A stretch of DNA of 64,000 bases. It comes from Escherichia coli (GTDB lineage Bacteria; Pseudomonadota; Gammaproteobacteria; Enterobacterales; Enterobacteriaceae). Location of the stretch: NCBI RefSeq assembly GCF_013315695.1, contig NZ_CP054353.1. One strand, given 5' to 3'. A model generated the notes under the pieces. That model did no database searches and was not told the DNA's origin. It saw only the letters and a list, made by a program, of their open reading frames with translations. Shown here in pieces: positions 7,383-7,961 of the stretch; the stretch's first letter is position 1; every line of letters starts with the position of its first letter. The translations under genes were made by a program, and so were the position numbers.

Positions 7383-7411
7383 AATTTAGAATAACCTAAC
7401 AGATGTGGCAA
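7383..7411 (-). promoter_or_regulatory. Putative sigma70 promoter of the dicB-type operon
   Basis: Reverse strand TTGCCA, 17 nt, TAAATT; overlapped by operator-like palindrome 7421-7436. Confidence 0.4.
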
Positions 7412-7420
7412 GTGTTTTTT

Positions 7421-7436
7421 GTTAGATTGATCTAAC
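7421..7436. promoter_or_regulatory. Palindromic operator-like site GTTAGATTGATCTAAC
   Basis: Near-perfect inverted repeat TTAGA..TCTAA downstream of dicA, overlapping the -35 of the leftward promoter. Confidence 0.45.
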
Positions 7437-7473
7437 AAGAAGAGTGAGGGAATCTAAGTGTCTGAAAGGAGTG

Positions 7474-7881
7474 TTATTTTATTGATTTGTTTTTACGTGC
7501 TTTAAGCATTTCTTCGAAGAGTTTATTGAAATTCTCTACTCTTGCGCGCATTTCAGACAGCAAGGCTTCCTGCTCGGAGGATGGAAGAGCATCGAATAAT
7601 TCGATCAATTCTTTGTGGCTGGGAGTTAACTCGGTTTCCACATGAAGTTCTTGTGCTGGCACTGGTGCCTTGTCTTCGTCACCAAACATTAGCCATGTAG
7701 GCGAGCACTTCAGCGCATCAGCTAAAGCAAACAACCGCTTCCCGACTGGTTGGGTTTCGTCTCTTTCCCATTGTGAAATTGTGACGTGAGCTACCCCAGC
7801 GAGGCGAGCGGCTTCTCGTTGTGTTAGGCGTAATTCTTTTCGTCGTGCCAGAACTCGCTGGCCTAGGGTTCTTGTATCCAT
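7474..7881 (-). CDS. dicA: DicA-like repressor (XRE-family HTH), 135 aa
   Basis: MDTRTLGQRVLARRKELRLTQREAARLAGVAHVTISQWERDETQPVGKRLFALADALKCSPTWLMFGDEDK...; divergent from the cro-like gene. Confidence 0.85.
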   Translation of the reverse strand: MDTRTLGQRVLARRKELRLTQREAARLAGVAHVTISQWERDETQPVGKRLFALADALKCSPTWLMFGDEDKAPVPAQELHVETELTPSHKELIELFDALPSSEQEALLSEMRARVENFNKLFEEMLKARKNKSIK

Positions 7882-7930
7882 AGTTAGGTAATTCTAATTT
7901 TTCTTGACTTAGGTATCCCGCGCACATTAC

Positions 7931-7948
7931 TGTTAGAAATATCTAACA
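7931..7948. promoter_or_regulatory. Palindromic operator-like site TGTTAGAAATATCTAACA in the dicA/dicC divergent region
   Basis: Inverted repeat with the same half-site TTAGA/TCTAA as 7421-7436, between the dicA and dicC starts. Confidence 0.45.
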
Positions 7949-7961
7949 AGAGGGGGCTTTG

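Follow-up and report, generated by a model that had tools for sequence, protein, structure and literature searches.

The two palindromes that flank a dicA-like repressor gene in an Escherichia coli prophage are very probably high-affinity operators of the DicA-type repressor encoded between them, within a lambdoid immunity region resembling those of Qin and mEp460. The stretch of DNA analyzed, here called the window, is 64 kb in length. The assignment draws on the sequences of the sites and on where they lie with respect to genes and predicted promoters, together with homology to the K-12 operator, conservation among relatives and covariation with the repressor. The silencing of a cro-like gene and a dicF/dicB operon by DicA is an arrangement already described for Qin of K-12, and the system is best regarded as that known Qin-type DicA/DicC switch, carried by a prophage that is less decayed and has a diverged allele of the repressor.

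The window carries an E. coli lambdoid prophage. Several human E. coli chromosomes share the 2.2 kb surrounding the palindromes with 100% identity, and one of them is annotated with a lambdoid prophage of ~40 kb adjacent to tRNA-Ser and mtfA. The gene enclosed by the palindromes, on the minus strand at 7474-7881, encodes a 135-residue protein with an N-terminal helix-turn-helix that matched NCBIfam NF007257 (transcriptional repressor DicA) over residues 1-134 with 224 bits against a cut-off of 101, in agreement with the original prediction of a DicA-like protein. The sequence is 57% identical to K-12 DicA over 132 residues. A Pfam search of the 135 residues revealed HTH_3 as the sole domain type and no match to an S24 or RecA-type autocleavage domain, and the N-terminal 70 residues matched the DNA-binding domain of P22 C2 (E = 1e-18). 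The first gene of the rightward operon (7962-8189, plus strand) is divergent from dicA and was identified as dicC-like, encoding a Cro-type protein, by NF007282 (166.7 bits against a cut-off of 130), by Pfam P22_Cro and by the annotation of an identical genome; the product is 83% identical to K-12 DicC. Next in the rightward direction come a ydaT-family gene (8173-8724) and genes for replication. Downstream of the repressor gene and on the same minus strand, the cargo of the leftward operon (5899-6873) comprises ydfC (6655-6873, from the annotation), the DicF sRNA (6262-6313; Rfam, 76.7 bits against a gathering score of 48) and dicB (5899-6087; Pfam DicB, E = 2e-40), consistent with the earlier description of this operon as one of division inhibitors. 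A candidate DicA antirepressor gene, rem, is located at 14375-14626 (plus strand), its product being 100% identical to that annotated by PGAP as 'protein Rem'. Thus, a DicA-family repressor with no RecA-type cleavage domain, a divergent DicC, an Oc-type repeat, a dicF/dicB operon behind a promoter that has related operator sequences, and rem are all present, as in a Qin-type immunity region.

Several other features of the prophage were recorded. In place of K-12 ydfA and ydfB, the interval 6945-7301 contains an ECs_2282-family zinc-ribbon gene on the plus strand (6966-7166) that is convergent with the leftward promoter and is overlapped in antisense by a minus-strand open reading frame of 118 residues (6945-7301); the leftward transcript would cross the zinc-ribbon gene antisense before reaching ydfC, dicF and dicB. 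A sub-threshold Rfam match to the STnc100 sRNA (6055-6264, minus strand; 34.4 bits against a gathering score of 47, E = 4e-5) sits between DicF and dicB and overlaps the dicB start. Perfect inverted repeats with AACCCGC arms at 14227-14244 and 17305-17324, with spacers of 4 and 6, lie one upstream of hokD and the other after the Q antiterminator gene, and are probably terminator-type hairpins. Between ~8800 and 14400 the collinearity of the window with NZ_CP184030, the genome that matches best, is incomplete, and rem at 14375 corresponds to the equivalent of 14642 in that genome, an offset of 267 bp. The prophage integrase of NZ_CP184030 is frameshifted and a DUF977 gene contains an internal stop, and the prophage may accordingly be partly defective.

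The first palindrome, GTTAGATTGATCTAAC, occupies 7421-7436 and is the core of an 18-mer, TGTTAGATTGATCTAACA (7420-7437), and of a 20-mer (7419-7438). The second, TGTTAGAAATATCTAACA (7931-7948), is a perfect inverted repeat, and both were found where the original prediction had placed them. The sequence TGTTAGA-N4-TCTAACA matched 7420-7437 and 7931-7948 with no mismatches, the 14 specified bases being identical. A search of the 64 kb allowing up to three mismatches gave a sole additional match, at 7384-7401, and none outside the region, including the vicinity of rem. The 18-bp form common to the two sites is TGTTAG-N6-CTAACA. The half-site had been predicted as TTAGA/TCTAA; the sharing was upheld, with the conserved half-site extending over TGTTAG/CTAACA (positions 1-6) and the final A falling in the variable spacer. 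All four matches to the core TTAGA-N4-TCTAA with at most one mismatch lie inside 7386-7946; ~1.07 matches are expected in the whole window, and 5 of 100 shuffles reached four. A de novo scan for perfect inverted repeats (arms ≥7, spacers 0-6) returned 65 in the window compared with ~28 in shuffles. The same 7-nt arm was found at two positions in three cases, of which only TGTTAGA recurred with the same spacer and flanked one gene; a shared arm occurred 0.03 times per shuffle in 30 dinucleotide shuffles.

The right candidate operator (7931-7948) lies over the -10/+1 region of the dicC-like promoter, just upstream of the dicC Shine-Dalgarno sequence, and covers roughly -10 to +10. The predicted rightward promoter (7904-7933, plus strand), homologous to dicCp, has the -35 sequence TTGACT (7904-7909), identical to that of K-12, and a -10 within 7926-7933 of uncertain exact position, either ATTACT with a 16-nt spacer based on K-12 homology or TACTGT with an 18-nt spacer. 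The K-12 -10 sequence, TATCTT, directly abuts GTTAG. The palindrome aligns with K-12 Oc next to dicC (TGTTAGTTATGACTAACA) and has identical half-sites, a position consistent with its predicted location in the divergent dicA/dicC region. A weak dicA-proximal site, here termed Oa-like, adjoins the dicA start codon at 7882-7899 (AGTTAGGTAATTCTAATT), with AGTTAGCTAATGCTAAAT at the dicA start in K-12. It shows the core TTAG-N6-CTAA, deviates from the longer pattern at one position and lies 49 bp from the strong site.

The predicted leftward promoter, the homologue of dicBp (7383-7411, minus strand), has the -35 sequence TTGCCA (7411 to 7406), a spacer of 17 nt and the -10 sequence TAAATT (7388 to 7383). 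It was the only minus-strand promoter-like site scoring at least 9/12 in 6600-8300, and the hexamers are kept in relatives and can be aligned with K-12 TTGACC-17-TAATCT. Transcription is predicted to start at ~7375-7376; the K-12 leftward start, calculated as a rough check from published transcript numbering and K-12 coordinates, fell within a few nt of the -10. The left upstream candidate operator (7420-7437) spans ~-61 to -44 of this promoter, and 8 bp of A-rich sequence, GTGTTTTT (plus strand), lie between it and the -35. The left palindrome had been predicted to overlap the leftward -35, a placement that does not hold for the conserved promoter TTGCCA-17-TAAATT. A promoter with its -35 in the palindrome, TTGTTA-16-AACACT, was considered and rejected, the score being 7/12, the -10 varying among close relatives and no counterpart being present in K-12. 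A degenerate site with three mismatches to the palindrome was found in the core of the promoter at 7384-7401 (minus strand TGTTAGGTTATTCTAAAT; ~-25 to -8), over the spacer and -10. The centres of the strong and weak left sites are 36 bp apart, which, as a point against the proposed mechanism, is not an integral number of helical turns. The degenerate core site and the weak site at the dicA start had escaped the original prediction. The K-12 counterparts of the left upstream and left core sites are TGTTAGCTATAGCATACA, located 7 bp upstream of TTGACC, and TGTTAGTCATGGCTAATC, located over the spacer and -10 TAATCT. A search for a third operator on either side revealed only isolated half-sites (~7910-7913 and ~7454-7457) that are not conserved.

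Conservation was evaluated with 80 loci from a scan of viral contigs (IMG/VR) encoding repressor relatives of 65-100% identity, each oriented on the repressor gene with both flanks extracted. In the 39 loci with repressors at least 94% identical, the right site contained TGTTAG in 39/39 and CTAACA in 38/39 with three distinct spacers, and the left upstream site contained TGTTAG in 38/39 and CTAACA in 39/39 with nine distinct spacers. The exceptions, one per site, were each a single-base change in a single locus. The surrounding non-coding sequence was variable at many columns, with the -35 and the degenerate core site nearly invariant; the latter was identical in 38 of the 39, the remaining locus having one change in the spacer. 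Ten loci with repressors of 72-75% identity kept TGTTAG..CTAACA, yet with other spacers. In the 29 loci of 65-67% identity helix 3 of the repressor is identical, whereas helix 2 reads 'SQAALG' instead of 'TQREAA'; in these loci the right site reads CCTTAG-N6-CTAAGG and the two left sites have CTTAG half-sites, the degenerate core site showing the same G-to-C change at position 2 as the other sites. K-12 DicA, the most divergent protein, has 'TQR' and keeps TGTTAG. The repressor of mEp460_ev081 is 52% identical with a different helix 3, and no TTAG-N6-CTAA site was found in that phage, which has ATTGAGTTTTCTCAAT (ATTGAG-N4-CTCAAT) at the Oc position and, at the left position, TTGAGTTTTCTCA (TTGAG-N4-CTCA) followed by an A-tract and the -35 TTGACG. 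In Cronobacter phage phiES15, ACTAACTTTTGTTAGT is located upstream of a TTGCCA -35. Since the positions of the sites are fixed while their sequences follow the repressor, the pattern is that expected of operators. The DicC of the CCTTAG group is ~95% identical to that of the window, with only a K-to-R change in the helix-turn-helix stretch, so that it is DicA, and not DicC, that the outer operator positions follow. This covariation, across four or five independent specificity types, is suggestive of recognition by DicA rather than proof of it. None of the public records MN652886, phiES15 and mEp460_ev081 has an operator annotation.

The phiES15 locus (L085; 1635-1665 and 1135-1160) encodes a DicA homologue of 52% identity with a different helix 3, and the gene is flanked by ACTAACTTTTGTTAGT and AGTAACTTTGGTTAGA. 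These sites contain the same pentamer as those of E. coli, but their half-sites are turned the other way relative to each other and are 4 bp apart.

Experiments reported for K-12 are in agreement with an operator function. K-12 Oc (TTGTTAGTCATAACTAACAA) placed before a reporter conferred DicA-dependent repression in vivo, a single A-to-C change in CTAACA abolished repression, and DicA at Oc both repressed dicC and activated dicA (PMC3441716). Oc on multicopy plasmids was toxic and was recovered only with mutations (PMC3441716), a titration effect seen again independently (bioRxiv 10.1101/2025.05.13.653802). The dicC start site was mapped by 5' RACE (PMC3441716), and within dicCp the annotated DicA site extends from -8 to +12 (bioRxiv 10.1101/2025.05.13.653802). 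The proposed sites Om and Oa showed no DicA binding in vivo and no dicA promoter was recognized (PMC3441716). Deletion of dicA derepressed dicBp 22-fold and Rem derepressed it 165-fold, and operator sequences were proposed in both K-12 intergenic regions on sequence grounds (PMC10448788). The dicB operon transcript is cut by RNase III between 813 and 814 to yield a DicF of 190 nt (PMC10448788). Control of both promoters by one repressor is the published Qin model (PMC10448788), and the original prediction that a single repressor controls its own promoter region and the division-inhibitor operon would, by analogy, agree with it. Counting against the operator assignment, the K-12 protein for which this experimental support exists is only 57% identical to the repressor of the window. 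The DicA site at K-12 dicB is recorded as unmapped or of low evidence (PMC7567609), and for that reason the left-hand palindrome is assigned as a putative DicA site of the dicB operon from sequence alone.

From the K-12 experiments and the covariation we infer that this allele of the repressor binds the sites; binding at the left is proposed to be cooperative, and dicA would be activated. A dimer of the DicA-like protein would recognize TGTTAG-N6-CTAACA through a helix-turn-helix of the P22 C2 type. On the right, repressor bound at 7931-7948 would block RNA polymerase, keeping dicC, ydaT and the replication genes off, and would stimulate transcription of dicA as reported for K-12. On the left, occupancy of the strong site at 7420-7437 would help to fill the weak site at 7384-7401, and ydfC, DicF, dicB, exonuclease and int would be silenced when both are filled. 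Since the repressor has no autocleavage domain, derepression would proceed via the Rem antirepressor of the same prophage or a DicC-dependent flip of the switch.

Repression from the strong left site needs an added assumption because the site is outside the core promoter, the candidates being cooperativity with the weak site, blocked upstream contacts of polymerase, or looping. It is rather unlikely that both palindromes are DicA sites with the left one acting independently of the weak core site, either by blocking upstream polymerase contacts (-44 to -61) or by forming a 511-bp loop with the right operator around dicA. In favor of such action, the perfect site occupies the position of an UP element beside an A-tract, the two perfect sites share all 14 specified bases and have no other perfect counterpart in the 64 kb, and the repressors of lambda and 186 engage in long-range pairing of operators. 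However, the weak core site is as well conserved as the strong one, and the covariation of its position 2 with repressor type argues that the repressor reads it; DicA is not known to form higher-order oligomers. Cooperative filling of the strong and weak left sites is the preferred explanation.

In lambdoid switches Cro and the repressor share operators, and the palindromes could on that ground be mainly or exclusively operators of the Cro-like DicC. Consistent with a role for DicC, the protein is required for spontaneous and urea-induced switching in K-12 (PMC10448788), and in mEp460 the DicC helix-turn-helix and the operator core are both changed. Nevertheless, the outer palindrome positions change with DicA helix 2 in the 66%-identical group despite the near identity of DicC, and repression at K-12 Oc in vivo requires dicA (PMC3441716). 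The results make such a division of roles improbable; the palindromes are likely shared by DicA and DicC, and exclusive use by DicC is unlikely.

A function of the palindromes as RNA hairpins, either a terminator after dicA or a structure in the dicC 5' UTR, is very improbable. The repeat at 7420-7437 is 37 nt past the dicA stop and folds with -6.9 kcal/mol (z = -2.7), and that at 7931-7948 would be partly transcribed in the dicC 5' UTR. The stems, however, are AT-rich, that of the repeat after dicA having 2 GC pairs of 8, the dicA strand has an A-run rather than a U-run after the repeat, and a terminator scan made no call, the sequence lacking the features of an intrinsic terminator. Moreover, the same arms are present at two loci with a degenerate copy inside a promoter, and they change in concert at all sites with the repressor rather than as compensatory pairs specific to one site. 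Chance resemblance, conceivable in an AT-rich region where short palindromes are common, is negligible given 14 identical specified bases at two sites flanking one helix-turn-helix gene, the rarity of a shared arm in shuffles and the retention of the sites across dozens of loci with variable spacers, the comparative data in effect refuting it.

The dicA-proximal site at 7882-7899 is set apart from the DicA operators in being invariant in relatives whatever the repressor specificity. It includes TAGAAT (minus strand, 7896 to 7891), located 9 nt before the dicA ATG, which has no Shine-Dalgarno sequence; the corresponding position is TAGCAT in K-12 and TAAGAT in mEp460, irrespective of repressor specificity. 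Instead of a DicA operator, this sequence may represent the -10 of a near-leaderless dicA mRNA or a site for DicC, and either reading would fit the finding that Oa is not bound by DicA and that no dicA promoter was recognized in K-12 (PMC3441716).

Directly downstream of the predicted leftward start is a 61-nt leader (7316-7376, minus strand), CATCAAGACACCGCACGGTGTTCTCAGCAAACAGTTCCGCTACCCCGGCGTTAAGGGGAAA. Its sequence hardly differs among K-12 Qin, mEp460_ev081, the PPompW prophages and many IMG/VR loci, and is kept despite three different immunity types and different downstream genes. An alignment fold revealed two short hairpins with one compensatory pair, and the first stem is kept with different sequence in phiES15 (ATCAC/GTGAT) and in a further locus, L053 (ACAC/GTGT). 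The folding energy of the leader was not significant (z = -0.57), and an Rfam search of 5600-8200 gave DicF and the sub-threshold STnc100 only, with no match for the leader. The leader may mark the boundary of a module or serve as a signal for antitermination or processing; in phages with no N gene it could act in cis to confer processivity or antitermination.

These observations can be joined in a tentative and, on present evidence, doubtful scheme in which the relatives form a set of immunity specificities on one scaffold, the dicA-proximal site serves as the dicA -10 and the leader acts in antitermination. Position 2 of the operator, either G or C, and the outer position that mirrors it may track DicA helix 2 (TQR versus SQA), and the nearly unchanged DicC common to both classes may read only the TTAG..CTAA core or the dicA-proximal site. 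If true, a near-leaderless dicA mRNA would explain why no dicA promoter was found in K-12.

The results are mainly confirmatory in indicating that the prophage has a complete DicA/DicC/Rem switch over the toxic dicF/dicB division inhibitors. As modest gains, the palindrome at the leftward promoter is perfect where the K-12 sites are degenerate and would offer a cleaner substrate for mapping repression of the dicB operon by DicA, and the table of repressor types and operators obtained from relatives could guide specificity-swap experiments.

Comparison with K-12 Qin revealed the same gene order, with dicC divergent from dicA and the leftward-operon promoter followed by ydfC, dicF and dicB, the same TGTTAG/CTAACA half-sites, the same positions of the four sites and the same dicCp -35. 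Both prophages encode a 135-residue repressor with no cleavage domain and both have rem. They differ in the repressor, 57% identical between them, in the left upstream site, which has two mismatches in K-12 and is perfect in the window, and in the oppositely oriented zinc-ribbon gene that replaces ydfA and ydfB. Unlike Qin, the prophage of the window retains ydaT and genes for replication, lysis and structural proteins. Phage mEp460_ev081, described in the literature as a functional temperate phage (PMC10448788), and the PPompW prophages of O157-type E. coli resemble the window in the architecture of the immunity region and in the identical leader downstream of the leftward promoter. They differ in the recognition regions of the repressor and in the palindromes (ATTGAG..CTCAAT in mEp460 and CCTTAG..CTAAGG in PPompW-type loci), which probably represent other immunity specificities.

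The operators of P22 C2 are 18 bp in length with a centre that is not contacted. The homologous N-terminal DNA-binding domain is shared with P22 C2, and the overall layout is that of P22 and lambda, with one operator to the right of the repressor gene, at the cro promoter, and another to its left, at the early-left promoter. In contrast to P22 C2 and lambda CI, the repressor of the window has no C-terminal S24 autocleavage domain. The operator triplets of lambda, OR1-3 and OL1-3, are replaced by one strong and one weak site on each side, 36 bp apart on the left and 49 bp apart on the right, and the strong left site, unlike that of lambda and P22, is outside the core promoter, on the upstream side of the -35.
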